Shown: positions 2,712 to 46,863 of the stretch, in pieces
Position numbering within the stretch: the stretch's first letter is position 1
Layout of the letters: each line of letters opens with the position of its first letter
Assembly: GCA_015493475.1 (NCBI GenBank)
Contig: WGDC01000052.1
Span: 11,375 to 75,374, forward strand
Direction: 5' to 3'
Source of the DNA: Deltaproteobacteria bacterium
Lineage (GTDB): Bacteria > Desulfobacterota > Dissulfuribacteria > Dissulfuribacterales > QOAL01
Length of the DNA stretch: 64,000 nucleotides
Program-made: the position numbers and the translations under genes
Notes under the pieces: generated by a model
Told to the model about the DNA's origin: nothing
Seen by the model: only the letters and a program-made list of their open reading frames with translations
Databases searched by the model: none

Positions 2712-4649
2712 CTATATCTCCACCTTGGCCCCTATCTCTATTACCCGGTCAGATGGTATGGCAAAAAAGGAGCTCACGTCCACAGAATTCCTGGAGAGAA
2801 ATACAAATAGGCTAGACCGCCACTTGCTCATTTTTGGCCTGTCGCTTATGCCCACATTTTCCCGCCCGAGGAAAAAGCTTGCCTCCCTCGTTTCCACCTT
2901 CAGTCCCCGCTCCCGAGCAAGGCTGAAAATTGTGTTTACATTTGGTTCTTCGATAAAACCGTAATGTGCTATAATTCTGTAAACACCTGAACCGAGCTTT
3001 TCTGTCTCGATCTTCTCGAAATTCGGCACTCTCGCTATTTCCTCCGTACGGATATTAAGGAAGATTACCTTTGAGTGAAGTATCTTGTTGTGCTGGATGT
3101 TGTGTACAAGGGCCGCAGGGACAATATCATGGCTCCTCGTCAGGAAAACCGCTGTGCCTTTTACACGCCTTGGAGGATTTTCCCGGAGCATTTCCTGAAA
3201 CTTTTCAAGCCTTGGGGTCAGTCTCCTCATCTTGTTCCGCAGGATTTCGCTGCCATCCTGATAGGTCAACATTACGGAAAAAATCGCCGCTCCGACAGCT
3301 AAGGGAAACCAAGCCCCGTGAGAGATCTTGGTGAGGTTGGCAAGGAAAAAGGGTGTCTCGACAATATAGAAAATGCAGGTAAGAAGCATGGCCACCATGA
3401 AATTCCACCCCCACTTTTTCCGCGTCACTACAAAGAAGAGGGTAGTAGTTATCAGCATTGTCACGGTTACAGCCATTCCATAGGCGGCAGCTATCTTGCT
3501 AGAAGTACGAAAGCCCACGACAAGGGAAATGGCACATATCATCAAGAGATAGTTTACCGGTGCAATGTATATCTGGCCCATGTGCCATGCCGACGTATGC
3601 CTTACCCTCAAACGAGGCAGGTAACCAAGCTTAATCGCCTGCTCCGTCAAAGAAAAGGCACCGGTAATCACTGCTTGGGAGGCGATAATCGTGGCAACCG
3701 TTGCAAGTATTACCATTGGAACCATGGCCCCGGCCGGTACAAGGGCATAAAAAGGATGATGTGACATGTCCGGCCTTACAAGCAGAACAGCGCCCTGACC
3801 GAAATAATTCAGGACCAGGGCGGGAAATACCAGTCCAACCCATGCCAAGCGGATGGGCGCCTTCCCGAAGTGGCCTAAATCAGCATAAAGGGCTTCCGCC
3901 CCGGTAACCACAAGGAATACAGCGCCAAGAACCACTAAACCAGCCATCTTGTTGCGAACTAAGAAGCCTATGCCGTACCACGGGAAAACAGCAGCGAGTA
4001 TTTTCGGATCGCGCGCTATTTGCGCAGCCCCAAGGAAAGATAGGGATAAGAACCATATCAGGATAACCGGTCCGAAGAGCTTGCCCACCCTCGCCGTTCC
4101 GCGCCTCTGCAGAACAAACAACCCCCCGAGGATAGCAATGGTCACGGGAATGACGTAGGGTTTTAAAGAGGGAGTTATTATCCGGATACCCTCCACAGCA
4201 CTGAGTACAGATATGGCTGGGGTTATCATGCCGTCCCCGTACAACAAGCATGCTCCGAAGAGGCCTATGGCCACCAACCCAAACCGGCGCCTTTTCCTTT
4301 TTGGCGTGGACTGTTTCAGGAGGCCGGTCAGGGCGATGACCCCACCCTCCCCGCGATTGTCGGCCATAAGGACAAAGGTCAGGTACTTGATTGTGACTAC
4401 CAAAAGAAGAGCCCAAAACATCAGCGAAAGTACGCCAAGAACGTTCCCACGGCTTACCGCGATTGCGTACTTACCGTGAAAGCACTCCCGCAAGGCGTAA
4501 AGAGGGCTCGTTCCTATGTCGCCATAAACTACCCCGAGGGCTGCAAGGGCTAATCCTGGAAGGCTTGATCCGGCTGCCTTTTGCCGGTTCCGGTTTCCGG
4601 CAAGGCGCTCAACAATATTTTTAATAATACCTTCAAAAAAACTTGCCAT
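2712..4649 (-). CDS. kup: KUP/HAK/KT family potassium uptake transporter
   Basis: LAALGVVYGDIGTSPLYALRECF signature, polytopic membrane body and cytoplasmic C-terminal domain. Confidence 0.9.
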   Translation of the reverse strand: MASFFEGIIKNIVERLAGNRNRQKAAGSSLPGLALAALGVVYGDIGTSPLYALRECFHGKYAIAVSRGNVLGVLSLMFWALLLVVTIKYLTFVLMADNRGEGGVIALTGLLKQSTPKRKRRRFGLVAIGLFGACLLYGDGMITPAISVLSAVEGIRIITPSLKPYVIPVTIAILGGLFVLQRRGTARVGKLFGPVILIWFLSLSFLGAAQIARDPKILAAVFPWYGIGFLVRNKMAGLVVLGAVFLVVTGAEALYADLGHFGKAPIRLAWVGLVFPALVLNYFGQGAVLLVRPDMSHHPFYALVPAGAMVPMVILATVATIIASQAVITGAFSLTEQAIKLGYLPRLRVRHTSAWHMGQIYIAPVNYLLMICAISLVVGFRTSSKIAAAYGMAVTVTMLITTTLFFVVTRKKWGWNFMVAMLLTCIFYIVETPFFLANLTKISHGAWFPLAVGAAIFSVMLTYQDGSEILRNKMRRLTPRLEKFQEMLRENPPRRVKGTAVFLTRSHDIVPAALVHNIQHNKILHSKVIFLNIRTEEIARVPNFEKIETEKLGSGVYRIIAHYGFIEEPNVNTIFSLARERGLKVETREASFFLGRENVGISDRPKMSKWRSSLFVFLSRNSVDVSSFFAIPSDRVIEIGAKVEI

Positions 4650-4946
4650 TTGGTTTTCAGCCTGATTTCAAGAATCCGTCCCTGATGCTGCAACAACCTG
4701 ATAAATTCATAAGGGAGGTACCATGGTCATTGAAGCGTGATACCAAATTCCAAAAAACTAATCAAGGAAAGGGCTCTTTGCAGAGAGGAGCAGAATGGTT
4801 AAATTCTCATTCAGGTATTCCGTCCCATGGGGTGTCTATGCACCATCTCTCACGAAGTGGGATAATAGCCCAAGACAGTGTACTTATTTCAAGACCTGCC
4901 AAGGGGGCGGAGCAAAGCCATTCGGCATTTCGCTGGAGACAAAGCC

Positions 4947-7900
4947 ATGCCTGGTGAAAAGAAGGAAAAATTGCTTTTTGGTCTTGACGTCGGATCCACC
5001 ACGGTAAAAATAGCCATCCTTGACCCTGATTACCATTTGCTCTTCCAGGGCAGAACCCGGACAAGTGGGCGGCCCCTTTCCGCCACCCTCGAACTTTTCA
5101 ATTCGCTTGACCCTAATCTTTCTCCACGGAAGGGATCGAGGCTCGCAGTAACCGGCACAGGCGGAAAACTCGTTGGCGGAATCCTCGGAGGCTTCTTCGT
5201 AAACGAAATTATTGCCCATACCACTGCGGCCTTGGCCCAATTTCCGGGCGCACGCACGCTTCTCGACATGGGAGGCCAGGACACCAAGCTGGTGCTTTTA
5301 AGGCCTGACAATAAGGGTAGAATCCGTGTCGAAGATTTCAGCCTGAACACCCTTTGCGCGGCCGGCACCGGGGCATTCCTTGACCAGCAGGCGGCAAGGC
5401 TCGGACTCACCATAGAAGAATTCAGCACCATAGCACAGCGTTCTATATCCCCGGCCACTCTCGCGGGCCGGTGCACCGTGTTCGCAAAGAGCGACATGAT
5501 TCATCTTCAGCAAGCGGCGATTCCGGACTGCGACATTGTGGCCGGACTTTGCCTGGCCCTTGTCCGTAACCTCAAGGCTACCCTTGCACGAGGAAAGGAA
5601 ATAATGGCTCCCATGATCTTCCAGGGCGGCGTGGCGGAAAACTACGGCGTCAGGACGGCCCTGAAAAAGGTATTCAGGCTTGGGGAAAATGAGCTTTTGA
5701 TTCCTGACAATTTCCGGACCATGGGCGCAATAGGAGCGGTTTTGAACGCACGTGACCAAAAGGCGTTAAGACCGTGTTTCAAGGGCCTCGAAGCACTCGA
5801 AAAATTTATTGCAAAAAGGCCCGTAACGGTAAAGAGACTGAAACCGCTCAGCCATTCCAGAGGCAGTGGAAAGATACAAGCTGGTAAATGGAACCACACA
5901 CCCGCCGGTGGCATAAGGGGTAAAATCCTCATTGGCATTGATGTCGGCTCAATAAGTACGAAGATGGTGGCTGCTGACATGGGGGGGAGGATACTTGTCC
6001 ACTATTACGGTAAGACCGCCGGCAAACCACTTGAAGCCTTGAAAACAGGACTTGGAATACTCGAAGCGGCAGTTTCCGGACCCTACGAGGTAATTTCTGT
6101 TGGGACTACAGGCTCCGGAAGGTACCTTGCCGGTGACTTTGTTGGGGCAGACACCTGCGTCAACGAGATTACCGCGCAGGCACGGGCGGCCATGGCCATT
6201 GATCCCGAGGTCGACACCATATTCGAAATCGGCGGGCAGGATTCAAAGTATATACGGATCAAGAACGGGGCCGTGGTGGACTTCATGATGAACCGGGCCT
6301 GCGCAGCAGGAACCGGCTCTTTTCTCGAAGAGCAAGCGGAAAGGCTCGGCCTGAGGATAGGACAATTCGGAAACATTGCGCTCTCTTCAAAAAAGCCGGT
6401 AAAAATGGGGGAAAGGTGCACGGTTTTCATGGAATCCGACCTTGTCCACTACCTCCAGCAGGGAGTGGACATCCCGGACCTGACAGCCGGCCTGTGCTAC
6501 AGTATCGTTCACAATTACCTCAATAAGGTAGTGGAGGGACGGCCGATAGGAGCAAAGGTCTTCTATCAGGGAGCAACTGCCCTGAATCCAGGCATCGTAG
6601 CCGCCTTTGAAACGGTCCTTGGCAGAAAGGTAATCGTGCCTGCCTTCTGCAATCTGACCGGCGCCCTTGGTGCAGCGATAATCGCAGGCGAAAGAAGCAG
6701 CAGCGAAAGCAGATTCAGGGGCTTCGAGGTCTCGAGGGTACCTTACGAGATCAAGTCCTTCGGGTGCAAGGCATGCTCTAACAGGTGCACCATAAGCAGG
6801 TTAAAAATACTGGGCAGAAAACCCGTCTTTTACGGCGGCAGGTGCGAGCGTTTCGAGACCTCGTCAGGGAAAAGGCCTCAAACCAAACTCCCCGACCTTG
6901 TCTCCATGAGACAGGAAAGACTCCTGGCCTATTGCCGGGAAGAGAGGCAGAAGACAGAAAAGGCTCCAAGGGGCACCATAGGCATACCATACTGCCTCGT
7001 ACTCCAGGAATGGCTGCCCCTCCTGTCTGTCTTCCTAAAGGAGCTTGGCTACGCCCCCGTAATATCTCCTCCAACGAGCCGGCGGATAATACGCAAGGGC
7101 ATTGAACAGATGGTTAACGAACCATGTTTCCCTGTAAAAACCGCCCACGGCCATGTACTATCCCTCTTGGAAGCTGGCATCAAGCGTATATTTCTCCCAT
7201 CCCTTATCGATTTTCCAAGCATTCGGGGCATGAAGCCCGGGCAATCGTGCCCCTATGTCCAGAGCTTGCCCTTTACCGTGCAGGCGGCCATTGACCTGAA
7301 ACGTTACGGCGCGGCCCTCCTGAGCGTTCCTCTTAGGCTTGGGCAAGGTAAGGGGGAGGACACGGCAACCGTGCTTAGGCTTTCCAGGGCACTCAAGGCC
7401 CCTCCCTGGCAGGTAAAAGGGGCGTGGAAGACCGCATGGAAGGAGCAGGAGAGGTTCAACGCGGAGTCCGTAAGGATAGGACGGGAGGCGATAAAAAACC
7501 TGCCCGGCGGTTCAAGGGCGGTCCTGCTCGTGGGCAGGCCGTACAACGCTCTTGATCCCGGCGCGAACCTCGAGATACACAAAAAGCTGCTGCGTCTTGG
7601 AGTCCTTCCCGTACCCATGGATCATGTGGACATAGACAGGTACATGCACAAGGTCCCTTCCATGGCATCAATGTACTGGAGATATGGCCAGCGCATCCTG
7701 TCGGCTGCCGCCATGTGTGCTGAAAATCCCGGCCTTAGGGCCATTTACGTTACGAATTTCGGCTGCGGCCCCGATTCTTTCCTGCTTCACAAATTTCAAG
7801 ACATAATTGGGGACAACCCCTTCCTCGAACTCGAAATAGACGAACACTCCGCAGATGCGGGCATACTCACGAGAATAGAGGCCTTCCTTGACACCTCTCC

Positions 7901-9167
7901 GTCATACAGCAGCCCTGCGAAATCGTCGAGGTCTGTGGGAACAAGTATCAATACCCGCCCTGGAAGGGAGAGGACCATTTTCATACCTGCCATGTCAGAC
8001 CATGTCCATGCCGTGGCAGCTGCCATGAGGGCCTGCGGCGTAAAGGCTGAAGTACTGCCACCTACCGACGACAAAAGCCTCTCCGTCGGCCTGGAGCATA
8101 CGAGCGGCAAGGAATGCTATCCTGCAATCCTAACTACCGGCGACCTTGTAAAGATGACCAACCTACCTGGCTTTTCACCAGACCGGGCTGCCTTTTTCAT
8201 GCCATGCGGACAGGGGCCCTGCCGATTCGGACAGTACCCTTCCCTGCACAGGAAGGTGCTTGACAACCTTGGCCTGGAACAGGTGCCCATTGTGAGCTTC
8301 AACCAAGACATCATGCTCTATTCCGAGCTGTCCTCCATTGGAAAGGACTTTTCTCGCCTGGCCTGGCAAGGTGTCGTGGCCATTGACCTCATAGACAGGC
8401 TTGCAAGGCATATCAGGCCATGTGCCCACGAAAGAGACGCGGTCGAAAGACTTTACAGGCATGGAATAGATGAGGTGATAGGGGCGATTTCCCGCAAGAA
8501 AGACCTTGTCCCAGTTCTTCAAAGGCTGCGCCTGCTCTTTGACAAGGTTGACATAAATGCTTTGCGCCAGCTGCCTTCCATAGGAGTAGTGGGCGAAATA
8601 TATACGAGGGCCAACCCCCAGGCCAACGCCAACCTGGTGGAGGAACTTGAACGTATCGGAGCCAGGGTCCTCCTTCCGTCCATGAGCGAGTGGATACTTT
8701 ACAATAACTTCATGGCCACAAGAAGGGCGAGACGCAAGGGCGAGTGGAAGGAGTTTGCAAGGCTGCAAATGGAAAATATGGTGCAAATTCACGATCTCAG
8801 ACGCTTGGAATCCGCAATAGGCCCCATCTCCGGAGACAGGGAATCTCTTACGAAAGACATACTAAAAATGGCCAGGCCCTTTGTTACGGACGAGTTCGAG
8901 GGAGAGACTATCCTCAGCGTCGGCAAGGCAGTGGAATTCATCAGGCACGGTGTATCCGGGATCATAAACGTCATGCCGCTTGCCTGCATGCCGGGAACCA
9001 TTGTGAACGCCCTGCTTAAAAGGGTAAGGGAAGAGATAGGCAACAGGCCGTTTCTTCCCCTTCCGTGCGATGGTCAGCAGGCCACCCTGAGATCTCTCAG
9101 GCTCGAGGCGTTCATACACCAGGCGAAAGAAATGGGGGCACTGCCGAGGGAACAGCCTGAATTTTAG
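4947..9167 (+). CDS. Fused BCR/HAD-family protein: two BcrAD/BadFG (HgdC-like) activase ATPase domains plus a Cys-rich linker and C-terminal DUF2229/HgdB-like domains
   Basis: Two copies of GxDVGS(T/I)..K, (L/M)N..CAAGTG.FL and (R)CTVF(A/M)(K/E)SD. Linker FGCKACSNRCTISR..GGRCERFE. C-terminal NFGCGPDSF and MPLACMPGT. Start placed at ATG 4947 (MPGEKKEKLLFGLDVGSTT). Confidence 0.75.
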   Translation: MPGEKKEKLLFGLDVGSTTVKIAILDPDYHLLFQGRTRTSGRPLSATLELFNSLDPNLSPRKGSRLAVTGTGGKLVGGILGGFFVNEIIAHTTAALAQFPGARTLLDMGGQDTKLVLLRPDNKGRIRVEDFSLNTLCAAGTGAFLDQQAARLGLTIEEFSTIAQRSISPATLAGRCTVFAKSDMIHLQQAAIPDCDIVAGLCLALVRNLKATLARGKEIMAPMIFQGGVAENYGVRTALKKVFRLGENELLIPDNFRTMGAIGAVLNARDQKALRPCFKGLEALEKFIAKRPVTVKRLKPLSHSRGSGKIQAGKWNHTPAGGIRGKILIGIDVGSISTKMVAADMGGRILVHYYGKTAGKPLEALKTGLGILEAAVSGPYEVISVGTTGSGRYLAGDFVGADTCVNEITAQARAAMAIDPEVDTIFEIGGQDSKYIRIKNGAVVDFMMNRACAAGTGSFLEEQAERLGLRIGQFGNIALSSKKPVKMGERCTVFMESDLVHYLQQGVDIPDLTAGLCYSIVHNYLNKVVEGRPIGAKVFYQGATALNPGIVAAFETVLGRKVIVPAFCNLTGALGAAIIAGERSSSESRFRGFEVSRVPYEIKSFGCKACSNRCTISRLKILGRKPVFYGGRCERFETSSGKRPQTKLPDLVSMRQERLLAYCREERQKTEKAPRGTIGIPYCLVLQEWLPLLSVFLKELGYAPVISPPTSRRIIRKGIEQMVNEPCFPVKTAHGHVLSLLEAGIKRIFLPSLIDFPSIRGMKPGQSCPYVQSLPFTVQAAIDLKRYGAALLSVPLRLGQGKGEDTATVLRLSRALKAPPWQVKGAWKTAWKEQERFNAESVRIGREAIKNLPGGSRAVLLVGRPYNALDPGANLEIHKKLLRLGVLPVPMDHVDIDRYMHKVPSMASMYWRYGQRILSAAAMCAENPGLRAIYVTNFGCGPDSFLLHKFQDIIGDNPFLELEIDEHSADAGILTRIEAFLDTSPSYSSPAKSSRSVGTSINTRPGRERTIFIPAMSDHVHAVAAAMRACGVKAEVLPPTDDKSLSVGLEHTSGKECYPAILTTGDLVKMTNLPGFSPDRAAFFMPCGQGPCRFGQYPSLHRKVLDNLGLEQVPIVSFNQDIMLYSELSSIGKDFSRLAWQGVVAIDLIDRLARHIRPCAHERDAVERLYRHGIDEVIGAISRKKDLVPVLQRLRLLFDKVDINALRQLPSIGVVGEIYTRANPQANANLVEELERIGARVLLPSMSEWILYNNFMATRRARRKGEWKEFARLQMENMVQIHDLRRLESAIGPISGDRESLTKDILKMARPFVTDEFEGETILSVGKAVEFIRHGVSGIINVMPLACMPGTIVNALLKRVREEIGNRPFLPLPCDGQQATLRSLRLEAFIHQAKEMGALPREQPEF

Positions 9168-9228
9168 CCGTCAGGCAGTTTATGAAGAACAACACGTAAA
9201 CATCCCTGGTCCGGTTCAGGATTCGTTT

Positions 9229-9633
9229 TTATATCCTCTTGTCGAAAAGGGTACCGAAGCGGCCGTGCGTATCAAATACCGCCCCGGAAAAAATATCCTC
9301 TATCTCGACCCTCGCCACGGTGCCCTTGGTCTTCCTGTCACGCACCATTATTACCGTGCCTAAGTCCGGAGAATGGGATAGAATGGCCTCGAGATCGGGA
9401 TTGTTGTCAAGGAAATTAGACATTACCTCAAGGGCATACGCCGCCTCTTCCTCGCTTACCCCTGATGAGTCCTTCCATGGACCTTTTTCGTCCCTGTTCC
9501 CTTTGCCTGAACGAAGTCTGGCCTTCTCACCCTTTTTAACAGGACGCACTAGAGGCCTTTCCTCCCGTTGTTCACCAATAAGCTGGGGCGGAAGCAGGTT
9601 GAATGCCTTGAAATCAATACCCTTGAAATCCAT
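9229..9633 (-). CDS. Small protein, FlaG-like (tentative)
   Basis: C-terminal half (FLDNN...LGTVIMVRDRKTKGTVARVEIEDIF...GTLFDKRI) resembles the FlaG family layout and its typical ...G(L)L(V/F)DK(K/R)(I/A) ending. Confidence 0.4.
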   Translation of the reverse strand: MDFKGIDFKAFNLLPPQLIGEQREERPLVRPVKKGEKARLRSGKGNRDEKGPWKDSSGVSEEEAAYALEVMSNFLDNNPDLEAILSHSPDLGTVIMVRDRKTKGTVARVEIEDIFSGAVFDTHGRFGTLFDKRI

Positions 9634-9862: not shown

Positions 9863-10753
9863 CTATCCATTTTCCCCAAGCAATGCCATGAGGGCCACCG
9901 GATCCACTCTCTTTCCGAGAAGGCTTACTCCCCAGTGCAGGTGAGGCCCGGTCACCCGGCCGGTGGCACCGGACAGCCCAATGATCTGCCCCTTTTTCAC
10001 CATCTGGCCCTTCCTGACCAGTACTCTCGAAAGATGCGCATAAAGGGTGAAAAGCCCGCCCCCGTGGTCAAGCACCACGGTTTTGCCGCTGAGATAGCAG
10101 TCCCTTACGAGTGCCACCCGCGCGGCATTTGGACTTTTTATGGGGGTATTCTCCATGGCCCTGATATCCACTCCCGAGTGGGGACTGCGCGGTTCACCGT
10201 TAAAAAAACGCCTTAGGCCAAAGGGACTCAGTATCTTGGACCTGACCGGCCAGATGAATGCGCCTTTCCAGTAGATTACGGGCCTTATCCTGCTGCACGC
10301 CCGGCGAATCGCCTTCTGGTCATCAAGAACACGTTTCAGAATCCGTGGTGGGAAGGAAACCATCTTTTCCGGCACGCGTAGGTACTCCGTCTTGTACCTT
10401 TTAGCCTTTACCCTTATATGCCATGGAACCACTGAGGAGACACCCTTTTTAACAAAGCAAAAGGCAAGCCTCTCTTCCCTTGGCCTCTCCTTTAGACCTG
10501 CGCCAACAAGAACCATGTAGCACCCGTTACGCAGCCTCTTGTACGGGACCATCACATTGGAAAAACTGACCCTTTTTAACAGGCAGCCAGAGGCTGCCCT
10601 TAACTCCACCTTGGCTACCCCACCCTGGTAAAGTGCTGCCGGTGTAGCGTTTATGCCAAGAAGACAGCCGTGTTCCTGGCAAAATGCGCAGCCTTGTGCG
10701 CAGAACAAAAAAAGGCCCAACAAGATCACAAAAAGGCAACTTTTGCTCTTCAT
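9863..10753 (-). CDS. M23 (LytM-type) metallopeptidase with signal peptide
   Basis: HSGVDI...DHGGGLFTLYAHLS...GATGRVTGPHLHWGV motifs. Confidence 0.85.
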   Translation of the reverse strand: MKSKSCLFVILLGLFLFCAQGCAFCQEHGCLLGINATPAALYQGGVAKVELRAASGCLLKRVSFSNVMVPYKRLRNGCYMVLVGAGLKERPREERLAFCFVKKGVSSVVPWHIRVKAKRYKTEYLRVPEKMVSFPPRILKRVLDDQKAIRRACSRIRPVIYWKGAFIWPVRSKILSPFGLRRFFNGEPRSPHSGVDIRAMENTPIKSPNAARVALVRDCYLSGKTVVLDHGGGLFTLYAHLSRVLVRKGQMVKKGQIIGLSGATGRVTGPHLHWGVSLLGKRVDPVALMALLGENG

Positions 10754-15380: not shown

Positions 15381-15971
15381 TTGAAAAGAATCCTTGTAGC
15401 AGGTTTAGGAAATCCAGGTCGAAGGTATCAAGATACGAGGCACAATGTAGGCTTCTCGGTTATTGACCTCCTTGCCCGGCAGGCTTGCCTGACTTTCAGG
15501 GAGGAACGTGTTCCACCGAGGTATCTCATTGCAGACGCCCACCTGTGGGAAAAGAGGGTGCTTCTTTTAAAACCCATAGAGTACATGAACCGTAGCGGAG
15601 GGCCTATTTCGAGGGTTGCCTCTTACTACCGCATACTGCCTGAAGCCATACTTGTGGTCCACGACGATCTTGACGTGCCTCTCGGACGAATGAAATTTGC
15701 CCGTTCAGGTGGCCACGGCGGTCATAACGGGGTTCGTTCCATCATAGAAAGCATGGGAACGAGATCGTTTCCGAGACTCAAGTTCGGCATTGGGCGCCCA
15801 CCCCGCGGCATGCCGACGGAACGTTATGTACTCAGCGGCTTCTCAAGTGACGAAGGTCCCGTCGCGAAGAAGGTGATGGAACTTGCTGTCAAGGGCATAG
15901 AAGAATTCGTCAGAAAAGGTATAGATTCTGCCATGAACAAATTTAACGGACTTGAGGTGGCCTCTTCATGA
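15381..15971 (+). CDS. pth: Peptidyl-tRNA hydrolase (TTG start)
   Basis: ILVAGLGNPGRRYQDTRHNVGF and GGHGGHNGVRSI motifs. Confidence 0.95.
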   Translation: MKRILVAGLGNPGRRYQDTRHNVGFSVIDLLARQACLTFREERVPPRYLIADAHLWEKRVLLLKPIEYMNRSGGPISRVASYYRILPEAILVVHDDLDVPLGRMKFARSGGHGGHNGVRSIIESMGTRSFPRLKFGIGRPPRGMPTERYVLSGFSSDEGPVAKKVMELAVKGIEEFVRKGIDSAMNKFNGLEVASS

Positions 15972-17314
15972 AAAAACTGCTTTCTTTGACCGTTTTAATC
16001 TTGATAATCTGCGCCATAGCGGCGGGAACCTTTCTTGGATTCAGGCTTTTTGAAGGACAAGCACCCGAAATCACGGTTGTGAAGGCCCCCCAGATTATCG
16101 GCAATGGTGGGGAAATAAGCGTTAGGGTTAGGGACAACCAGGCCGGCATCAGGCTAGTTGAGGCACGGGTCGTCCAGGGAAACCACCGGGTTCCTCTTGG
16201 AGAAAAGGCCGTTTCCATCCCGAGCAGGTGGACGGGCTCTCCAGAAAAGGAGATGGTATTGACCTGGCAGATAAATCCACGTAAGGAAGGGCTTTCCCCG
16301 GGAAAGGCCACCCTTGTAATAAGCGCCTTTGACGCCTCCCTAAGAAACGGTTCCAAGGGAAATCAATCCATCATGGAGATTCCGTTAAACATAGACTACA
16401 TACCACCGGTTATCACGGTCTTGTCTACCATACATAACATACGCGTTGGAGGCTCTGGGGCCCTATCATTCCGCCTGAACGAACCGGTCACAATGGCGGG
16501 CGTAAGGATCGATAACCGTTTCTTCAGGGCATACAAGGGAAATGATGGTATATACCGGGTATTGTTTGCCATGCCATTTAACGTTGATCATCCAAGGGTT
16601 GTTGAAATTGAAGCCAAGGATCTTGCCGGAAACAGATCGGTTGCAGGGTTTGCTTACCGGATTTTCCCAAGACGCAAGAAGGAGGACCGCATTAACATCC
16701 CGGACTCCTTTTTACGTCAGAAGATGCCCGGTTTCGAAAGCAGGTTCCCGGAAGTAGCAGCCCCGAGCCTCATTGCAACCTTCATTAAAGTAAACCATCT
16801 TCTTCGCAAGAAAAACAACGGTTTTCTGCTTTCCCTTTGCGGCAAAAGCATTGGCAAGATATTGTTCTCTGGAAAGTTTATTCGCTTCAAAGGCGCCCAG
16901 AAATCTGGCTTTGCGGACAAGAGGCACTATTTTTACCACGGCAGGGAGGTTGATCAGGCATATCACATGGGCGTTGACATAGCCTCTATTGCACATGCCA
17001 AGGTGCCGGCGGCCAACAACGGCAGGGTGGTATTTTCCGACTACAACGGGATATATGGAAATACCATTGTGATAGATCACGGCATGGGCCTTATGAGCCT
17101 CTATGCGCACCTCAGTGAAATGATGGTCCATGTCGGACAGGATGTGCAAAAAGGCCAGATCATTGGCATAACCGACTCCACTGGCCTGGCCGGCGGTGAC
17201 CACCTCCATTGTGGAATGATGCTCGGGGGCGTATTCGTAAACCCGGTGGAGTGGTGGGACTCTCGATGGATACGGGACCATATAACCTACAACCTTTACA
17301 TAAAGCCGGATTAA
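15968..17314 (+). CDS. M23 family metallopeptidase with N-terminal membrane anchor
   Basis: HMGVDIAS...DHGMGLMSLYAHLS...GGDHLHCGM. ATGA overlap with pth. Confidence 0.85.
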   Translation: MKKLLSLTVLILIICAIAAGTFLGFRLFEGQAPEITVVKAPQIIGNGGEISVRVRDNQAGIRLVEARVVQGNHRVPLGEKAVSIPSRWTGSPEKEMVLTWQINPRKEGLSPGKATLVISAFDASLRNGSKGNQSIMEIPLNIDYIPPVITVLSTIHNIRVGGSGALSFRLNEPVTMAGVRIDNRFFRAYKGNDGIYRVLFAMPFNVDHPRVVEIEAKDLAGNRSVAGFAYRIFPRRKKEDRINIPDSFLRQKMPGFESRFPEVAAPSLIATFIKVNHLLRKKNNGFLLSLCGKSIGKILFSGKFIRFKGAQKSGFADKRHYFYHGREVDQAYHMGVDIASIAHAKVPAANNGRVVFSDYNGIYGNTIVIDHGMGLMSLYAHLSEMMVHVGQDVQKGQIIGITDSTGLAGGDHLHCGMMLGGVFVNPVEWWDSRWIRDHITYNLYIKPD

Positions 17315-33673: not shown

Positions 33674-35011
33674 CTATTGAAATAGCCCGATAAGCCTTGA
33701 AATAGAATCTTCGAGGCTCGAACGCTCATCAACGGCCTGGCGCAAAAAGGCCCTTACCTCTTCTATCTTCCCCAGAGCGAAATCTATATCCGGATTGGTT
33801 CCACGGGTATAGGCCCCTAGATTCACAAGGTCCTCCGCCCTGCTGTAAATGGAAAGGACTCTCACGAGCTGCTGGTATGAAGCCACCTGTCCAGGGACGG
33901 CTATATCCCTCATAATCCTGCTTATGCTCTGGAGTATGTCTATTGCCGGATAATGACCCTGGTGGGCTAGGTCCCTGCTCAATACCACGTGTCCGTCCAC
34001 TATGGACCTGACAGAGTCGGCAATGGGCTCGTTCATGTCGTCTCCTTCCACGAGCACCGTGTAGATGCCCGTTATGGATCCCCTGTTGCCCTTTCTGCCT
34101 GCACGCTCGAGAAGCTTGGGCAGCTCTGCAAACACAGATGGCGTGTAGCCCCTCGAAGTGGGGGGCTCGCCAATGGAAAGGCCAACCTCCCTGTGCGCCA
34201 TTGCGAACCTTGTTACAGAATCCATCATCAGGATCACATCCTTGCCCTGGTCCCTGAAATATTCAGACAGGGCAGTCGCAAGGTAGGCCCCCCTGAGCCG
34301 TATCAGGGGAGGCTGATCGGAAGTCGCTACCACGACCACGGACCTCTCGAGCCCCTCGGGCCCGAGGTCCCTCTCGATAAAATCCCTTAGCTCCCTTCCC
34401 CTTTCTCCAATGAGCCCGATGACGCTTACGTCCGCCGCAGTGTGCCTTGCTATCATTCCGAGAAGGGTACTTTTGCCCACACCGGAACCCGCCATTATGG
34501 CGATTCTCTGGCCCTTTCCTAGAGTCAGGCAGGCGTTGATGGCCCTGACCCCCACATCCACCGGCGTGTCTATGCGGGGCCTGTCCATGGGATTTAGCGG
34601 GTCCGCATAGAGGGGATAATGGTCATCAAAGGAAAGAGGCCCTTTTTCATCTATGGACCTTCCCTTAGCGTCGAGCACCCTACCCAGCAAGGCCTGGCCG
34701 ACCCCTGCACTCGCCTGGTCCTGGCTGACCCATATCTTGCTTCCAGGCTCTATGCCCCTCATATCACCAAGGGGCATAAGGAGTACCCTGTTGTTCCTGA
34801 AACCCACCACCTCAGCAGAAATGGTGCTGCCCGACTTTACCTCAACGGAACATATACCTCCGATGGGTACACCTGGGCCCTGGCCCTCTATAACCATGCC
34901 CACAACCTCTTTCACTATTCCGCATGCCCTGATGGGCCGCGAATCCTTAATGGTGTCAGAATATACGCCGAGATCTATACCCATTGAATCCGGCAGATTC
35001 CATCCATCCAT
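33674..35011 (-). CDS. fliI: Flagellum-specific ATPase
   Basis: Walker A MAGSGVGKSTLLGM and F1-beta-like core. Confidence 0.95.
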   Translation of the reverse strand: MDGWNLPDSMGIDLGVYSDTIKDSRPIRACGIVKEVVGMVIEGQGPGVPIGGICSVEVKSGSTISAEVVGFRNNRVLLMPLGDMRGIEPGSKIWVSQDQASAGVGQALLGRVLDAKGRSIDEKGPLSFDDHYPLYADPLNPMDRPRIDTPVDVGVRAINACLTLGKGQRIAIMAGSGVGKSTLLGMIARHTAADVSVIGLIGERGRELRDFIERDLGPEGLERSVVVVATSDQPPLIRLRGAYLATALSEYFRDQGKDVILMMDSVTRFAMAHREVGLSIGEPPTSRGYTPSVFAELPKLLERAGRKGNRGSITGIYTVLVEGDDMNEPIADSVRSIVDGHVVLSRDLAHQGHYPAIDILQSISRIMRDIAVPGQVASYQQLVRVLSIYSRAEDLVNLGAYTRGTNPDIDFALGKIEEVRAFLRQAVDERSSLEDSISRLIGLFQ

Positions 35012-35889
35012 CAGGCCTTACCTTCCTTCTCCATGCCGGTCCCGTTGATTTTTCTCAACTCTCTTTGCAGTTCCACTCCCGTCCTTTCGAAAAGCTGCCC
35101 TTCTATTTCATCGAGGAGACACTGCCAACGGGACTCTATGGATGCATCCACAAGACCGAAATCCGTCTCTATCATGCAGCCCCCTCTATTCACCTTGGCA
35201 TCCGGCTTCAGCTCGACCTTGTTACCACCCGGAGTAGAAAGCCTTGACAGAAAATCCTCGCAGAGATTCTCGAAGTCCCTCGGATTCATGTGCACGGTTA
35301 TGGAACTGCCCTCAATGGTCCGGTCCATGGCCCTGACAAGGACCCGCGCAATCAGATCCTGATCCTCCGTGATCTCTTTCTCGATTATCTTCCTTGCAAC
35401 GATAAGGCAAACCTGGAGCATCTGGGCCTCGTAGGAGGATGAAAGCCCGGCTGTCTGCTCCTTGAAATTTTCAAGAAACTTTTCGAGGTGCTGAAGCCCC
35501 ACCTCGAACTGCCTTCTGCCAAGTTCCTCCCCATCCTTGGTTCCCTGTTCGTAACCGAGATTGTAGGCCTGGCTCTCTATCTGTTCCGCATTTTTCCTCG
35601 CTGCTGCAATTAATTTCTCTGCTTCTTGCCTGATCTCTGCAGCCCTCTTTTCGGCGCCTGAAACGATCCGTTCCGCATTTTCCATAGCATCCCCGAGGAC
35701 ACCGGCGGCCTGCTCCGCAGCCCCATCCTCCTGACCCTGGCACCCGCCATGGACTCCCTTCCCCTCGGGCACAAGCCCTGCCAGACTATTGAAATTCTCT
35801 CCCGTGGCGGCTCCATCCTTTTCCGAATGTCCGCTGTGAGGAGAAAACACCGCAAAGGAACACCTTCCTTGCTTTATCACCCTTGCCAT
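35011..35889 (-). CDS. fliH: Flagellar assembly protein FliH
   Basis: AxxxA-rich helical centre, C-terminal GGCMIETDFGLVDASIESR, position between fliG and fliI. Confidence 0.7.
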   Translation of the reverse strand: MARVIKQGRCSFAVFSPHSGHSEKDGAATGENFNSLAGLVPEGKGVHGGCQGQEDGAAEQAAGVLGDAMENAERIVSGAEKRAAEIRQEAEKLIAAARKNAEQIESQAYNLGYEQGTKDGEELGRRQFEVGLQHLEKFLENFKEQTAGLSSSYEAQMLQVCLIVARKIIEKEITEDQDLIARVLVRAMDRTIEGSSITVHMNPRDFENLCEDFLSRLSTPGGNKVELKPDAKVNRGGCMIETDFGLVDASIESRWQCLLDEIEGQLFERTGVELQRELRKINGTGMEKEGKA

Positions 35890-35892
35890 AGG

Positions 35893-36933
35893 CTAAACCA
35901 GAACCTCATCGCCGCCCTTTCCGCCAAGCACTATCTTGCCCTCACTCTCAAGGCGCTTGGCCACGCGGATAATTGCCTGCTGCGCCTGCTCCACGTCCTT
36001 CAATCGCACCGGCCCCATGACCTCAAGATCTTCCTTGAGCATCTGACCCGCCCGCTCGGACATATTGTTGAAAAACTTCGCCCTCAGGTCCTCGGATGCC
36101 GCCTTCAGGGCAAGCTTCAGCTCATCCGTGCTAATCTCCTTGAGTATTGCAACAATGGCGCTGTCATCCACCTGCAAGAGATCCTCGAACTTGAACATGA
36201 GTTTCTTTATCTCTTCCGCAAGATCCTGGGAGGTATCCTCTATCTGCTCAAGCAGGGAATCTTCCAGAGTTCTTTCAAGATTGTTCAGTATCTCTGCGAC
36301 CTTTTCCGCGCCGCCTACCTTAGTGGCATCACTCATCTCCACGGAGAAGAGCTCCTCTTCAAGCACCCTGTCTATCTCCGCCACGATCTCCGGGCTTATC
36401 TTCTCAAGATTTGCTATTCTCAACATAACGTCTGACTGGAGCTTGTCGTTGAGTTCCGAGAGTATTTCAGCGGCAAGGTCCGGTTCAAGATGCGCAAGTA
36501 TCACTGCAATGGTCTGGGGATGCTCGTTGGACAGGAAATTCACTATCACCTTGGGCTCGAGGCTCGAAAGCTTCTGAAAGGTAGATGGATGAAGCTGGCG
36601 CATTATATCTTCATAGATCTGCCTTGCCTGCTCCTCGGGCATGGAGGAAAAGAGCACCTTTTTCAAGAAATCCTCCACCGGTACGGACACCTCTCCCTGC
36701 ACCATTGACATCTTAGTCTTGACCTCATCAAGCACAAGCTGTATGGCCTCGCCAGGTATGTTTTGTATCTGGGCCATCAGGGACGAGACCTTGCGCACCT
36801 CGTTCTCCTTGAGATACTTGAACACCTCGGCGGTGAAGGCCTCACCCATCGCAAGCAAAAAGATGGCCGCCTTCAGGGGACCGTCCGGGTTAGACAAATC
36901 CATCCCTCCGGGCAGTGCAACCTCCTTACTCAC
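35893..36933 (-). CDS. fliG: Flagellar motor switch protein FliG
   Basis: Full-length FliG pattern (AAIFLLAMGEAFTAEVFKYL, MFKFEDL, torque helix region). Confidence 0.95.
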   Translation of the reverse strand: MSKEVALPGGMDLSNPDGPLKAAIFLLAMGEAFTAEVFKYLKENEVRKVSSLMAQIQNIPGEAIQLVLDEVKTKMSMVQGEVSVPVEDFLKKVLFSSMPEEQARQIYEDIMRQLHPSTFQKLSSLEPKVIVNFLSNEHPQTIAVILAHLEPDLAAEILSELNDKLQSDVMLRIANLEKISPEIVAEIDRVLEEELFSVEMSDATKVGGAEKVAEILNNLERTLEDSLLEQIEDTSQDLAEEIKKLMFKFEDLLQVDDSAIVAILKEISTDELKLALKAASEDLRAKFFNNMSERAGQMLKEDLEVMGPVRLKDVEQAQQAIIRVAKRLESEGKIVLGGKGGDEVLV

Positions 36934-38521
36934 CTTCCTTCTCCTTCCTCTTTTCTCTCAGCCATATCTTGATAAGGGCAGCAGCACGCTCCGGATATTC
37001 GTTAGCGAGATCTCTCAGTTCCCCCTTTACGTCCGGAATGGGTTCAAAGGGAGGAACCATTGCCGCCTCGCCTCCTGCCACCTCGCCCTCGAGGGCCGCT
37101 GCCTCCTCTGCCGGAGGCGCTTCAGGAGGCTGCAGGACGAAACGGTTAAGGAGCGGCCTCAAAATTGCGAAGATGAAAATGAGCGCAAGAACCAGGTTTG
37201 CAAGGGGCCTTATGAGTTTTGTGAAAATGTCTACCGCCTTTGCTACAAGGCCCTTTTTGGTGGTTTCCGGGGAAAAAGCAACGTTGACAACGCTCACGTC
37301 GTCTCCCCTATCCTCGCTGTAACCCATGGCGGCCATGACTATCTGCTTGAGGTTTGCAAGCTCCTCTGGGCTTCTTGGCTTATACACCGTCTTGCCCTTT
37401 TCCTGGATATATTTGCCGTCAACCATAACTGCCACGGAAAGACGCTTCAGGCTCCCTATGGAGCCGAGTATCTCTCTCTGTATCCTTGTAATCTCGTAAT
37501 TGGATATATCCTTCTTCTTCCTTTTCAGGAAATTCTCCCCCTGATTGTTGATGTTACCTTGGAGCTTGCTTGCGAGGCCTCCCTTTACCCCGGGAATACC
37601 GCCCTGCTGTGAAGGTTTTTCTATCTCCTCGAGCTTTTCCTCACTCCTAACGGCAACAGAGTCAGGATCGTACTTGTCCTCGCTGGTCTTGACCTGATTA
37701 AAATCCACGTCCGCACTCACCCTTACTACCGCCTTCTTCGGACCAAGAGCAGCCTCGAGCATGGTCTGTATCTTGTGTTTGAAGTATTCCTCAAGACGCC
37801 TTCTGTAGGTGAACTGCAAATTGGCCTTGGCCTTTAGAGGGTCCTTGGTTTGCATCTTGGCGTCGTAAAACACGTTTCCGCTGGTATCCACCACGGTGAC
37901 ATTGTCCTTTGTGAGCCTCGGAACAGCACTCGCCACAAGATGCACTATGCCGAGAACCTGTCTGTGGGACAACTCCTGGCCCCTCTTTAGCTCCAAGACC
38001 ACCGAGGCGCTCGGCTCCTGTCTCTGGCCCACGAAAAGGCTTTCCTTGGGCTCGGCAATATGAACGCGTACTGTCTTTACCTCGGGAAATCTTGAGATTG
38101 TCTTTTCGAGCTCGCCCTGTAGCGCCCTCTGATAGTTGACCTGCTGTACGAAATCGGTAGTGCCGAGACTTGACTTGTCGAAAATCTCGAACCCTACACC
38201 GCTTCCCCTCGGAAGACCCTGGCTCGCAAGTGCAAGCCGTACGTCGTACACCTTGTCTTCGGGCACCTTTATGGCACTGCCCCCCTGGACCACCTTATAA
38301 GAAATGCCCTTCTTTTTGAGCCACTGGACTATCTCACCGGCATCCTTCTGGTCCAGATCCGTATAGAGGACCTTGTAACTAGGGGTGTTAATCAACAGGA
38401 AAAGGGCGGCAAAACCTGCAAGCGCAGCCACGACAACCACGGCCGTAATCGCCTTCTGCCTTACGCTAAGGTCTTGATATAGTCTTTTAAGCTGTGAAAC
38501 ATAGTCCGAAGGGCCGGCCAT
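36926..38521 (-). CDS. fliF: Flagellar M-ring protein FliF
   Basis: N- and C-terminal TM segments and YscJ/FliF core. Confidence 0.95.
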   Translation of the reverse strand: MAGPSDYVSQLKRLYQDLSVRQKAITAVVVVAALAGFAALFLLINTPSYKVLYTDLDQKDAGEIVQWLKKKGISYKVVQGGSAIKVPEDKVYDVRLALASQGLPRGSGVGFEIFDKSSLGTTDFVQQVNYQRALQGELEKTISRFPEVKTVRVHIAEPKESLFVGQRQEPSASVVLELKRGQELSHRQVLGIVHLVASAVPRLTKDNVTVVDTSGNVFYDAKMQTKDPLKAKANLQFTYRRRLEEYFKHKIQTMLEAALGPKKAVVRVSADVDFNQVKTSEDKYDPDSVAVRSEEKLEEIEKPSQQGGIPGVKGGLASKLQGNINNQGENFLKRKKKDISNYEITRIQREILGSIGSLKRLSVAVMVDGKYIQEKGKTVYKPRSPEELANLKQIVMAAMGYSEDRGDDVSVVNVAFSPETTKKGLVAKAVDIFTKLIRPLANLVLALIFIFAILRPLLNRFVLQPPEAPPAEEAAALEGEVAGGEAAMVPPFEPIPDVKGELRDLANEYPERAAALIKIWLREKRKEKEGE

Positions 38522-39921: not shown

Positions 39922-41358
39922 TCACAGTACAAGCCCTATATTCCGGTACTCGGATAGCTTGTTCCTCAGGGTCCTTACGCTGATTCCAAGAAGCTTTGCG
40001 GCATGCGTCCTGTTGCCTTTGGTCTTGGAAAGCGCCCTTTTTATCATCTCCTTTTCAATCTCCCCGAGGTTAAATGTATCCTCCCCCAAGGACTTTTGGC
40101 CCGATGCCGATGCAGAAATTTCCCCCTCTATAAGTTCTTCTCCAAGCAAATCCTGCAGGGTGATTTCCCCCGATTGGGCCAGCAGCACACCTCTTTCCAC
40201 TATATTCTTGAGTTCGCGCACGTTTCCGTTCCACTTTCTCTGCTCTAGCGCATCAAGTACCCCTTTTGCAAATTTGAGCCCATTTTTCTGATATTCCCGT
40301 GAGAATTGTTCCCGAAAATGCTCAGCGAGAAAGGCTATATCCTCTCTTCTCTGCCTGAGAGAGGGCACCTTCAGAGGAATGACATTCAGCCTGAAATAGA
40401 GGTCCTCCCTGAATTTACCCGCACGCACCGCTGCGAGCACATCCCGGTTCGTCGTAGCCACGACCCGCACGTCCACTGGAACCGGTTTGTAACCGCCGAG
40501 CCTGTCTACCTCACCTTCCTGAAGTACTCTCAGAAGCTTGGCCTGTAGGGGCATAGCCATCTCGGTCACCTCATCAAGTAGAATGGTTCCTGTGTCCGCG
40601 AGCTCGAACTTGCCGAGCTTCTTCATGACAGCGCCTGAAAATGCACCCTTCTCATGGCCAAAAAGCTCGCTTTCAAGGAGGGTCTCGGGCAATGCTGCAC
40701 AGTTAAGGGCTACAAATGGACCCCCTGCCCTGTCGCTTTCAGCATGGATAAACCTTGCAAGCAGTTCCTTGCCAGTCCCGCTTTCACCCTGGATCAGAAC
40801 TGTTGCCTTGCTCTTGGCAACGCTTCTTGTCTGTGCAAGCACCTTCTCCATGGCCGGGCTCTTTGTCAGTATTTTGTACTTGTCAAAATCCCGACGCTTC
40901 TTGGCACCTTCCTTCTTGTCCTGTTCAGGCGGTTCAGCCTTACCACTCCTCTTGGTCTTGGAGGCATGAGTTGCCAGGGCCCGCTTTATCACAAAGCCGA
41001 GAATATCACCCGACCAAGGCGGCAGCCTGAAATCCATGGCGCCAAGCTCCATTACGAGTTCAGCGTCCTCAACGGTCGCCTCCCTGGCAAGGACAATCAC
41101 CTTGGGCCTGACCCCTTGATCATGGAGCATTTTCAAAAATTCCACCGCATCAAAGGCCTCTTGATTATGAAACACCACGCAAAACAGAAAATCGTTTTTT
41201 TCAACGAGCCCCAAGGCGATCTCGATATCCGGTGCCATGGTGATCTCAAAACCCATGTCTTCAAGGCTGGCTTGGAGATCCATCCGTTCCTTGATATCAC
41301 CGCCTGCCAACAGGACCCTCTGCCGCCTCTTTTGAAACATATCTTGATATTCCGTCAT
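39922..41358 (-). CDS. Sigma54-dependent transcriptional activator with a degenerate (FleQ/FlrA-like) receiver domain
   Basis: AAA+ GESGTGKE, GAFSGA loop, ILLDEV, C-terminal HTH HAAKLLGISVRTLRNKL. The N-terminal receiver fold lacks the acceptor Asp. Confidence 0.85.
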   Translation of the reverse strand: MTEYQDMFQKRRQRVLLAGGDIKERMDLQASLEDMGFEITMAPDIEIALGLVEKNDFLFCVVFHNQEAFDAVEFLKMLHDQGVRPKVIVLAREATVEDAELVMELGAMDFRLPPWSGDILGFVIKRALATHASKTKRSGKAEPPEQDKKEGAKKRRDFDKYKILTKSPAMEKVLAQTRSVAKSKATVLIQGESGTGKELLARFIHAESDRAGGPFVALNCAALPETLLESELFGHEKGAFSGAVMKKLGKFELADTGTILLDEVTEMAMPLQAKLLRVLQEGEVDRLGGYKPVPVDVRVVATTNRDVLAAVRAGKFREDLYFRLNVIPLKVPSLRQRREDIAFLAEHFREQFSREYQKNGLKFAKGVLDALEQRKWNGNVRELKNIVERGVLLAQSGEITLQDLLGEELIEGEISASASGQKSLGEDTFNLGEIEKEMIKRALSKTKGNRTHAAKLLGISVRTLRNKLSEYRNIGLVL

Positions 41359-46800: not shown

Positions 46801-46863
46801 GACATGGTCAAAGTGGTAACTATTGCAACGGACCGTGGGCTCAAAAGGTAAAACTGATGACAT
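43804..46863 (-). CDS. GH57 family alpha-glucan branching-enzyme homologue with ~500-aa N-terminal extension
   Basis: LIFHLHAHLPYIR, GIWLPECAY and YDAELFGHHWFEG in the C-terminal half (43804-45375). The N-terminal half holds repeated DUF4912-like modules. Confidence 0.85.
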   Translation of the reverse strand: MSSVLPFEPTVRCNSYHFDHVFIEVTRNLVYLRWDGEVNDRVNTAMEDLWVQVFRPGEDQPLLEKKCTNLHSTEFYIGESGDFEIRLVLKEHCKLYMSTDFHYTPKVSFVSENPQRHHITWSDVDWERVKNEVERSFRLDWENEVDLFVHCIRRPFGGGDLPIEEWIWTGTGDYAVIMGELRKINLTVVRKDVKDEAGVLHADLEEPTVLKIVFSLDFQEPDVVGELFSGTVRVPAGTRYFELKREVWEEDTVQLRAWWEISERDWRRVYEEILIPKGLDWQDVAVEIELHELTTKGARRLPKHGGKVLPGAKDWLFHNVKDGAAYEAAIVVRHAGTGLNQKVISSTFCPVPSRPDHIVLLPVDERRGFAYWHIDRDSLPGRLRRLGEKTGQSVRTYIKLYHEWAGGLYHQIHEDVEVNLDLADNWYLNLEPDKVYRAELVAVAGGEVLSLTDVSNSIQTARVVPGNNPLQFREVKLSGGHPTNRKIESVMGTAENSIGLLIFHLHAHLPYIRKRVSYGESGFWQPMGYPPEWFHEAVKDTYIPLILTFEKLAAEGVDFRVSMDISPTLSNMMRCAFLQEEFLKYIDAHINLARAEVDRTRRQALHYHDTAWMHLNRFLEIKDCFLKYDCDLTGAFSKFQEQGYMEISTCGATHAFLPFFTPCPGAVRGQIETAVSDYESTFGMAPRGIWLPECAYVPGIERFVEEAGLRYFFTETHAVTLADCPVVFGTHAPVFLKGSDVAAFARDPETGKQVWSGEEGYPGDPDYLDFHFKGGPLRYNRITTRSNDYKEPYVRKWALEKAARHAQHFMESRNFRFRYIKDWFWKKPVVVAMYDAELFGHHWFEGIDFLYFLMKKFYYNQNETELITPSSYLFRYPRNQEVFLNPSSWGDKGTFDKWMYGSVSWMYRHSHEAIRELAAMAAHWKERAHDDATARRIVAQAGREVLQSMNSDIPFVISNGHFVDRMKEYFFEDLERFWILASIFWDEHRDSETNLCRLGNIERTNPIFPEIDPDVFVPR

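Follow-up and report, generated by a model that had tools for sequence, protein, structure and literature searches.

A 64,000-nucleotide stretch of an uncultured deltaproteobacterium (assembly GCA_015493475.1, contig WGDC01000052.1, positions 11,375 to 75,374; the window below) carries a single gene at positions 4947-9167. Its product, a 1,406-residue fusion protein, is a complete, intact and apparently functional member of the PlsA/Ger family. The evidence supports its assignment, at the family level, as a self-contained lipid ester reductase of the PlsA/PlsR or Ger type, predicted to convert glycerolipid esters to ethers under anoxia. We favour a Ger-type enzyme with a saturated alkyl ether product, at a probability of roughly 0.6. 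A first-pass annotation, made from the DNA letters alone, had described a stand-alone fusion of ~1,400 residues at exactly these coordinates and had preferred lipid ester reduction over aromatic or amino-acid fermentation. The first statement is confirmed, and the second is supported at the family level. The chain contains two ATPase modules followed by two halves of the benzoyl-CoA reductase/2-hydroxyacyl-CoA dehydratase (BCR/HAD) fold. The lipid reading draws on the PlsA-like length and domain order, the 'BBD' core, the lack of CoA-pathway partners near the gene, and end-to-end alignments with common cysteine ligands to a Listeria and a Thermodesulfobacterium geofontis-labelled protein.

Much is already known about this family. 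In Clostridium perfringens, plsA-plsR (CPE1194/1195) turns diacyl lipids into plasmalogens, and a single gene of 4.2-4.9 kb covers both parts in facultative anaerobes (PMC12838417, PMC9702350). The single-gene PlsA genes tested measure 4,248-4,920 bp and encode proteins of ~1,415-1,640 residues (PMC12838417). Plasmalogens were produced in Escherichia coli from the genes of Enterococcus faecalis, Lactococcus cremoris and Bifidobacterium longum subsp. suis (PMC12838417, PMC9702350), and the Listeria pls orthologues are reported to be active in anaerobiosis (PMC9702350). A 'modified PlsA', later renamed Ger, is represented by Thermotoga maritima Tmari_0479 (AGL49404) and Desulfatibacillum alkenivorans SHJ90043 (PMC13159169, PMC8788747). 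In anaerobic E. coli both Ger proteins gave rise to 1-O-alkylglycerols (PMC13159169), and the D. alkenivorans one to diethers as well (PMC11150832). The BBD core, two ATPases plus DUF2229, is conserved in all alkyl-ether producers (PMC13159169). Ger homologues are known across many phyla, including Thermodesulfobacteria, with multiple copies in deltaproteobacteria (PMC13159169, PMC8788747). The literature counts the T. geofontis homologue among four 'modified PlsA' proteins whose hosts have ether lipids but lack plasmalogens (PMC8788747), and the membranes of T. commune consist mostly of ether lipids (PMC5552659). Ger2, a close paralogue in D. alkenivorans (153 kDa, where Ger has 159 kDa), yielded no ether lipids when expressed in E. 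coli (PMC11150832).

In the window, an open reading frame (ORF) runs without interruption from 4878 to 9167 on the plus strand. Translation from the ATG at 4947 yields 1,406 residues, 153.9 kDa and a pI of 9.4. The same 1,406-residue gene was called independently on an ENA metagenome scaffold (REYS20-1_SAMN12239313 scaffold_7, 169.6 kb), and the two proteins are identical. Sample and isolate names attached to this scaffold and to its closest MAG relatives suggest, though they do not prove, an origin in surveys of hydrothermal vents. The gene and the parts of its product are:

4947..9167, plus strand: complete fusion gene, including the stop codon (ORF, translation, ENA scaffold gene call)
4974..5759, plus strand: activase module 1, an ASKHA ATPase, residues ~10-271 (PF01869, TIGR00241, alignment to 1HUX, 4EHT and 9GAI_D)
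5931..6686, plus strand: activase module 2, residues 329-580 (best PF01869 stretch; PDB matches 4EHT, 9GAI and 1HUX)
6765..6845, plus strand: linker motif C607-x2-C610-x3-C614-x18-C633 (cysteine conservation)
6975..7910, plus strand: reductase half 1 (Red1, the DUF2229 region), residues ~677-988 (PF09989, BCR/HAD fold, cysteines, homology to Red2)
8013..9137, plus strand: reductase half 2 (Red2, PlsR-equivalent), residues ~1023-1397 (homology to Red1, sub-threshold DUF2229 stretches, fold matches)

The N-terminal part of the protein is the most readily recognized. Pfam finds PF01869 (BcrAD_BadFG) in two stretches (E 5.5e-68), and there are two matches (E 7.4e-89) to the NCBIfam model TIGR00241, 'acyl-CoA dehydratase activase'. 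Each module aligns along its whole length with the solved activators HgdC (1HUX), HadI (4EHT) and MbdQ/MbdP (9GAI); the cysteines of the CAAGTG and CTVF motifs line up, and homology is evident at the sequence level (E 1e-25 to 1e-35). Module 1 has DVGS at residue 14, GGQD at 109 and the cluster cysteines C137 (CAAGTG) and C176 (CTVF), which are 98% conserved in the ingroup and present also in Listeria, Collinsella and Haliovirga. In module 2, DVGS lies at 332 and GGQD at 429, and the cluster cysteines are C452 and C491. Both modules thus have the ASKHA fold and the pair of cluster cysteines, 39 residues apart, by which HgdC-type activators ('archerases') are recognized. The two complete activase modules claimed in the first-pass annotation are therefore real, and the motifs it quoted are all in the translation: LLFGLDVGSTTVK, LNTLCAAGTGAFLDQQ and GRCTVFAKSD in the first module, ILIGIDVGSISTK, MNRACAAGTGSFLEEQ and ERCTVFMESD in the second.

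Between the ATPases and the reductase part lies a linker with a CxxCxxxC...C motif. It had been quoted as a Cys-rich segment, FGCKACSNRCTISR...GGRCERFE, and this segment proves to hold an invariant four-cysteine set. The linker cysteines are 100% conserved, Listeria, Collinsella and Haliovirga included. In a structural model (described below) the linker forms a small beta-strand region of moderate confidence. The motif would suit an additional [4Fe-4S] or Zn site, and no counterpart to it was found in the separate-subunit HAD, BCR and double-cubane cluster protein (DCCP) systems compared.

The C-terminal ~750 residues form the reductase part, in which the quoted motifs NFGCGPDSF and MPLACMPGT were both found. 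PF09989 (DUF2229) matches residues 677-894 (E 4.6e-55). The domain check proposed in the first-pass annotation thus returned both PF01869 and DUF2229, and the E-values rule out chance as the source of the domain matches. Red1 has three invariant cysteines (C727, C768 and C940; spacings 41/172), as has Red2 (C1057, C1092 and C1347; spacings 35/255). The halves are homologous to each other by profile-profile comparison (hhalign E 1.2e-4 over 279 columns), with their cysteine triads paired, and the C-terminal part of the Listeria PlsA-type protein aligns with Red2. For residues 595-1406, AlphaFold2 with an input of 70 sequences gave a model with a pLDDT of 88.6 and a pTM of 0.89. Its 14 PDB fold matches at E≤0.001 all belong to the catalytic subunits of the BCR/HAD superfamily, namely DCCP (7YYL/6ENO), HadBC (3O3M/3O3O), BzdNO (8S02/8S2R) and MbdON (9GAI/9G87). 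The likeness to HAD and BCR subunits is one of fold, at 9-13% identity; searches of the PDB with the reductase half, by sequence and by profile, detected no HAD or BCR catalytic subunit.

Cysteine conservation was assessed in an alignment of 163 sequences. It combined the window protein with 119 homologues from databases, homologues from related metagenome-assembled genome (MAG) loci, and three full-length anchors from Listeria monocytogenes, Collinsella aerofaciens and Haliovirga abyssi. Essentially invariant are 14 of the 27 cysteines, namely two in each ATPase module, four in the linker and three in each reductase half. These could fit up to four metal sites of the HAD type, and three invariant cysteines per half is the pattern of the 2-hydroxyacyl-CoA dehydratases. 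Conserved cluster cysteines, the BBD core and a C-terminal PlsR-equivalent region are among the features by which the PlsA/Ger family is recognized.

A double-cubane cofactor, as in DCCP and YjiM, was considered and rejected because of the cysteine count. The DCCP/YjiM motif (CX19CX18-19CX29CX166-170CX32-34CX32C) has seven cysteines, with six ligands per subunit for an [8Fe-9S] cluster (PMC7317905), against three invariant cysteines per half here. Resemblances to these systems are the best fold match of the reductase halves, which is to DCCP of Carboxydothermus hydrogenoformans (7YYL_A, E 2.9e-5), and the logic of an ATP-dependent reductase partner, common to DCCP/DCCP-R and YjiM/YjiL. The BLASTP match to YjiM is confined to the C-terminal 60 residues and is marginal (E 0.002).

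The family is very large: at least 8,000 candidates were scored, all at E≤1e-10, and nearly all matches listed are ~1,400 residues long. The reductase half alone retrieves 861 representatives at E≤1e-30 from a library clustered at 50% identity. In one published screen a match had to reach E≤1e-50 and cover ≥30% of T. maritima Ger (PMC13159169); another set E≤1e-30 together with an identity of >30% (PMC13274423). Full-length homology was measured here against surrogates from Listeria and T. geofontis, in place of T. maritima AGL49404. The Listeria single-gene PlsA-type protein is colinear over residues 12-1405 (E 8e-152, 28% identity, 100% coverage), and the T. geofontis-labelled MAG protein (UniRef A0A7V4JQG8) aligns end to end at 47% identity with 1% gaps. 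Among the matches listed, the named relatives most similar to it are from Desulfolithobacter (59-60% identity); proteins of Thermosulfurimonas, Thermodesulfatator, Caldimicrobium and Thermodesulfobacterium come next (47-51%). A scan of genome contigs added 44 MAG loci, none of them from Thermotoga, Desulfatibacillum, Clostridium or Enterococcus; the closest, at 76%, is from a deltaproteobacterial MAG. A protein search with a Desulfobacterales homologue (P0087) as seed likewise listed no Desulfatibacillum protein, and among long-contig matches and representatives rich in Glu and Lys, a composition suggestive of thermophiles, the names that came up were Desulfobacca and Aerophobetes.

Neighbour-joining trees with 60 bootstraps place the fusion protein in a clade with the Desulfolithobacter group (60/60), and this clade is in turn grouped with the Thermodesulfobacteria proteins (60/60). 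A separate clade on a long branch unites Listeria, Collinsella and Haliovirga (60/60). Within Thermodesulfobacteriota, the tree roughly tracks taxonomy. A phylogeny had been proposed as a check of membership in the PlsA/Ger clade; with surrogate anchors, the protein groups with Thermodesulfobacteria and stands apart from the Listeria-type clade. Three records filed as plasmids in PLSDB are of chromosome size (NZ_CP030101.1, 2.9 Mb; NZ_CP084075.1, 2.1 Mb; NZ_CP154629.1, 2.6 Mb), which explains how a pls-type gene from a Listeria chromosome came to be found in a plasmid collection.

A single MAG contig, CAVVCD010000042.1, has two full-length paralogues that are 75% identical (L016, 8001-12104; L033, 8001-12152), so recent duplication occurs in the family and complicates the transfer of function, a situation comparable to that of Ger and Ger2 in D. 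alkenivorans. On the Paraclostridium bifermentans plasmid pHD0315_2-2, a 1,282-residue homologue (L048, 3992-7840) keeps the ATPase and Red1 cysteines and is without the linker cysteines and all three Red2 cysteines, which are replaced by Y, E and E. It adjoins ABC-transporter genes, behind a Crp/Fnr regulator, and is a divergent member of the family whose role may differ.

From these features a mechanism can be proposed. The fusion protein would be a glycerolipid ester reductase that is driven by ATP and sensitive to oxygen, and would combine the equivalents of C. perfringens PlsA and PlsR in one chain. The two HgdC-type modules would form an intramolecular pair with a single [4Fe-4S] cluster shared between them, C137/C176 and C452/C491 serving as its ligands. 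ATP hydrolysis would push a low-potential electron from this bridging cluster into the reductase part, possibly by way of the four-cysteine site of the linker. Red1 and Red2 would act as a pseudo-heterodimer of homologous BCR/HAD-fold halves, each with a three-cysteine [4Fe-4S] cluster that has one free iron, as in 2-hydroxyisocaproyl-CoA dehydratase. The sn-1 acyl ester carbonyl of a finished phospholipid could bind the free iron, be reduced through a ketyl radical to a hemiacetal, and then be dehydrated to a vinyl ether. In the favoured Ger-type case, the vinyl ether would be reduced further to the saturated 1-O-alkyl ether, and the sn-2 ester might possibly be reduced as well.

The Ger-type outcome is favoured because the protein falls in a clade with Thermodesulfobacteria, in whose cultivated representatives the membranes are mostly of ether lipids and plasmalogens are absent (PMC5552659, PMC8788747), and because it lies far from the plasmalogen-type anchors. 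Like Ger, it is a single chain of ~1,400 residues with a BBD core of two PF01869 domains and PF09989, and it belongs to Thermodesulfobacteriota, as does the D. alkenivorans protein; the short, weak DUF2229 or HGD-D matches of the C-terminal half may be a further likeness. It differs in its mass, which is nearer to that of the inactive Ger2 than to that of Ger (PMC11150832), and in having no PF06050 fragment.

Several points weigh against this assignment. Ger and PlsA are not distinguishable from primary structure, according to specialists, so that we can only infer an alkyl rather than a vinyl ether product (PMC13274423). The tree anchors are surrogates (Listeria, Collinsella and Haliovirga proteins from PLSDB and the T. 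geofontis-labelled protein), standing in the tree and comparisons for T. maritima and D. alkenivorans Ger, C. perfringens PlsA/PlsR and E. faecalis PlsA. Paralogues occur within one MAG (L016 and L033), and expression of Ger2, of the same mass as the fusion protein, led to no ether lipids in E. coli (PMC11150832). A hydropathy scan of the fusion protein found no transmembrane segment, so any contact with lipid has to be peripheral. The DNA comes from an uncultured organism.

The published architecture criterion is a further point of this kind. According to it, the C-terminal half of Ger has several small (~50 residues) PF09989/PF06050 matches rather than one long PF06050 match (PMC8788747, PMC13159169). 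In the C-terminal half of the fusion protein, Pfam reports two sub-threshold DUF2229 stretches, and PF06050 was not detected even below threshold. In six relatives scanned (L046, L047, L049, P0053 and P0008 among them), every PF06050 match scored under the gathering threshold, and the Listeria plasmalogen-type protein shows the BBD core only, with zero PF06050 matches. Resting on such sub-threshold matches, the criterion does not separate the two types here. It was set aside as uninformative for this reason and looks like threshold noise.

Should the same machinery stop at the 1-O-alk-1'-enyl (vinyl ether) product, the fusion protein would be a PlsA-type plasmalogen synthase. This is the best of the other explanations, though we consider it unlikely. 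It shares with PlsA/PlsR and single-gene PlsA the order Act1-Act2-Red1-Red2 and the length, and with the Listeria and Collinsella proteins the domain order and all 14 invariant cysteines, those of Listeria in a full-length colinear alignment. Single-gene PlsA proteins of comparable length make plasmalogens in E. coli (PMC12838417), the two types are inseparable by sequence (PMC13274423), and one proposal has the Ger reaction itself pass through a plasmalogen (PMC8788747). However, identity to the plasmalogen-type anchors is 28%, against 47-60% to the Thermodesulfobacteria and Desulfolithobacter proteins, and the two groups are split at 60/60 bootstraps. The lineage of the named clade relatives also has cultured members with saturated ethers and no plasmalogens (PMC8788747, PMC5552659). 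C. perfringens PlsA/PlsR, moreover, is encoded by two genes, whereas the fusion protein is one chain, and E. faecalis (PMC9702350) and Collinsella have an upstream TetR regulator, which the window gene is without. In C. aerofaciens the TetR-like regulator lies directly 5′ of the homologue (L049, 2048-2758), an arrangement like that of E. faecalis EF1326/EF1327.

Less probable still is that the protein is a Ger2-like paralogue, one that does not reduce lipid esters or that needs another partner, substrate or condition. The mass of 153.9 kDa is close to the 153 kDa of D. alkenivorans Ger2, which in E. coli had no activity by itself and brought no gain when combined with Ger (PMC11150832). Paralogues are found in single genomes (L016 and L033), multiple homologues are known in deltaproteobacteria (PMC13159169), and the family is very diverse, as its 861 representatives attest. 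Yet mass alone is a weak criterion, and the Ger2 negative may reflect inclusion bodies, as its authors note (PMC11150832). All 14 ligand cysteines and both sets of ATPase motifs are intact in the fusion protein, and the Thermodesulfobacteriota tree follows taxonomy roughly as expected of one orthologous lineage.

Quite improbable, too, is a two-part alternative. Either the lineage of the fusion protein, Desulfolithobacter and Thermodesulfobacteria would be functionally distinct from tested Ger and PlsA (perhaps Ger2-like, with a substrate other than a diacyl phospholipid, such as another lipid ester or a non-lipid carbonyl), or the linker would be a dedicated electron-entry cluster through which a physiological donor could feed the enzyme directly.

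That the protein is a classical 2-hydroxyacyl-CoA dehydratase or benzoyl-CoA reductase-like enzyme with a fused activator, serving fermentation or the breakdown of aromatics with a CoA thioester as its substrate, is very improbable: homologues do bear database names such as '2-hydroxyglutaryl-CoA dehydratase activator', the fold and three-cysteine clusters are those of HadBC and BCR, and FldB/C cluster I includes long fusions of reductase/dehydratase subunits with archerase ATPases (PMC7317905), but no PF06050 above threshold and no CoA-ester pathway or partner-subunit genes accompany the fusion protein, no neighbour is conserved in relatives, its likeness to HAD/BCR subunits is one of fold without detectable sequence similarity, and the fused BBD-type members with demonstrated activity all act on glycerolipids (PMC13159169, PMC12838417). 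With HadBC/HadI, HgdAB/HgdC, BzdNOPQ and MbdONPQ the fusion protein shares homologous ATPase modules with the same cluster-ligand cysteines; it differs from them in having everything in one chain, with an invariant four-cysteine linker.

The surroundings of the gene agree with the description of it as stand-alone. Its flanking features are:

2712-4649, minus strand: Kup gene, divergent, upstream of the fusion gene (confirmed)
4935..4938, plus strand: GGAG Shine-Dalgarno-like site, 8 nt 5′ of the ATG (read from the sequence)
9205..9220, plus strand: weak terminator-like hairpin and T-run, 38 nt past the stop codon (consensus scan only)
9229-9633, minus strand: 134-residue ORF, convergent, downstream of the fusion gene (also called as a gene on the ENA scaffold)

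A Pfam scan of the neighbours and of the larger ORFs of the window found no separate dehydratase, reductase or lipid genes. Nor were CoA-transferase, CoA-ligase, dehydrogenase or partner-subunit genes found near the fusion gene. Of the two neighbours named in the first-pass annotation, kup stood; the FlaG-like label did not, since the 134-residue ORF is without any Pfam match even at E≤0.1. The fusion gene appears monocistronic. Terminator-like sites in the region were not in excess of shuffled expectation in the promoter/terminator scan. No conserved neighbour or operon is common to the window and the related loci. The Syntrophus and Syntrophorhabdus loci have housekeeping neighbours in common (hemC, acylphosphatase and accA, from N-terminal ORF sequences), which is attributed to synteny among close relatives.

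Elsewhere in the window, a flagellar export/basal-body cluster, fliF-fliG-fliH-fliI, occupies 33674-38521 and 39922-41358, both on the minus strand, with the Pfam domains YscJ_FliF, FliG_N/M/C, FliH and a type III secretion system-type ATPase, and a sigma-54 activator immediately upstream. Two paralogues of ~860 residues with PPDK_N and PEP-utilizer domains (49414-51978, plus strand; 55561-58194, minus strand) enclose a pair of a histidine kinase and a sigma-54 response regulator (52171-55030, plus strand). A 1,019-residue protein (43804-46863, minus strand) combines DUF4912, a GH57 domain and a 1,4-alpha-glucan branching enzyme C-terminal domain. Two M23-family peptidase genes lie <7 kb apart (9863-10753, minus strand; 15968-17314, plus strand), and between them is a housekeeping block with Exonuc_VII_L, GHMP-family kinase, ribose-phosphate pyrophosphokinase, Ribosomal_L25p and Pept_tRNA_hydro domains.

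The fusion gene is an ordinary added member of a known, widespread family, not a new system. Because that family was already known to be widespread in deltaproteobacteria and Thermodesulfobacteria, one more sequence alone changes little. For annotators of the family, the invariant cysteine set of 2+2+4+3+3 offers a concrete, testable cofactor model, and a by-product of the analysis is that the architecture rule for telling Ger from PlsA rests on sub-threshold matches. Glycerol ether lipids serve as environmental biomarkers and bear on the 'lipid divide' between Bacteria and Archaea. If the enzyme is active, its gene would indicate that the uncultured, Desulfobacterota-like host probably makes such lipids of the non-isoprenoid kind.

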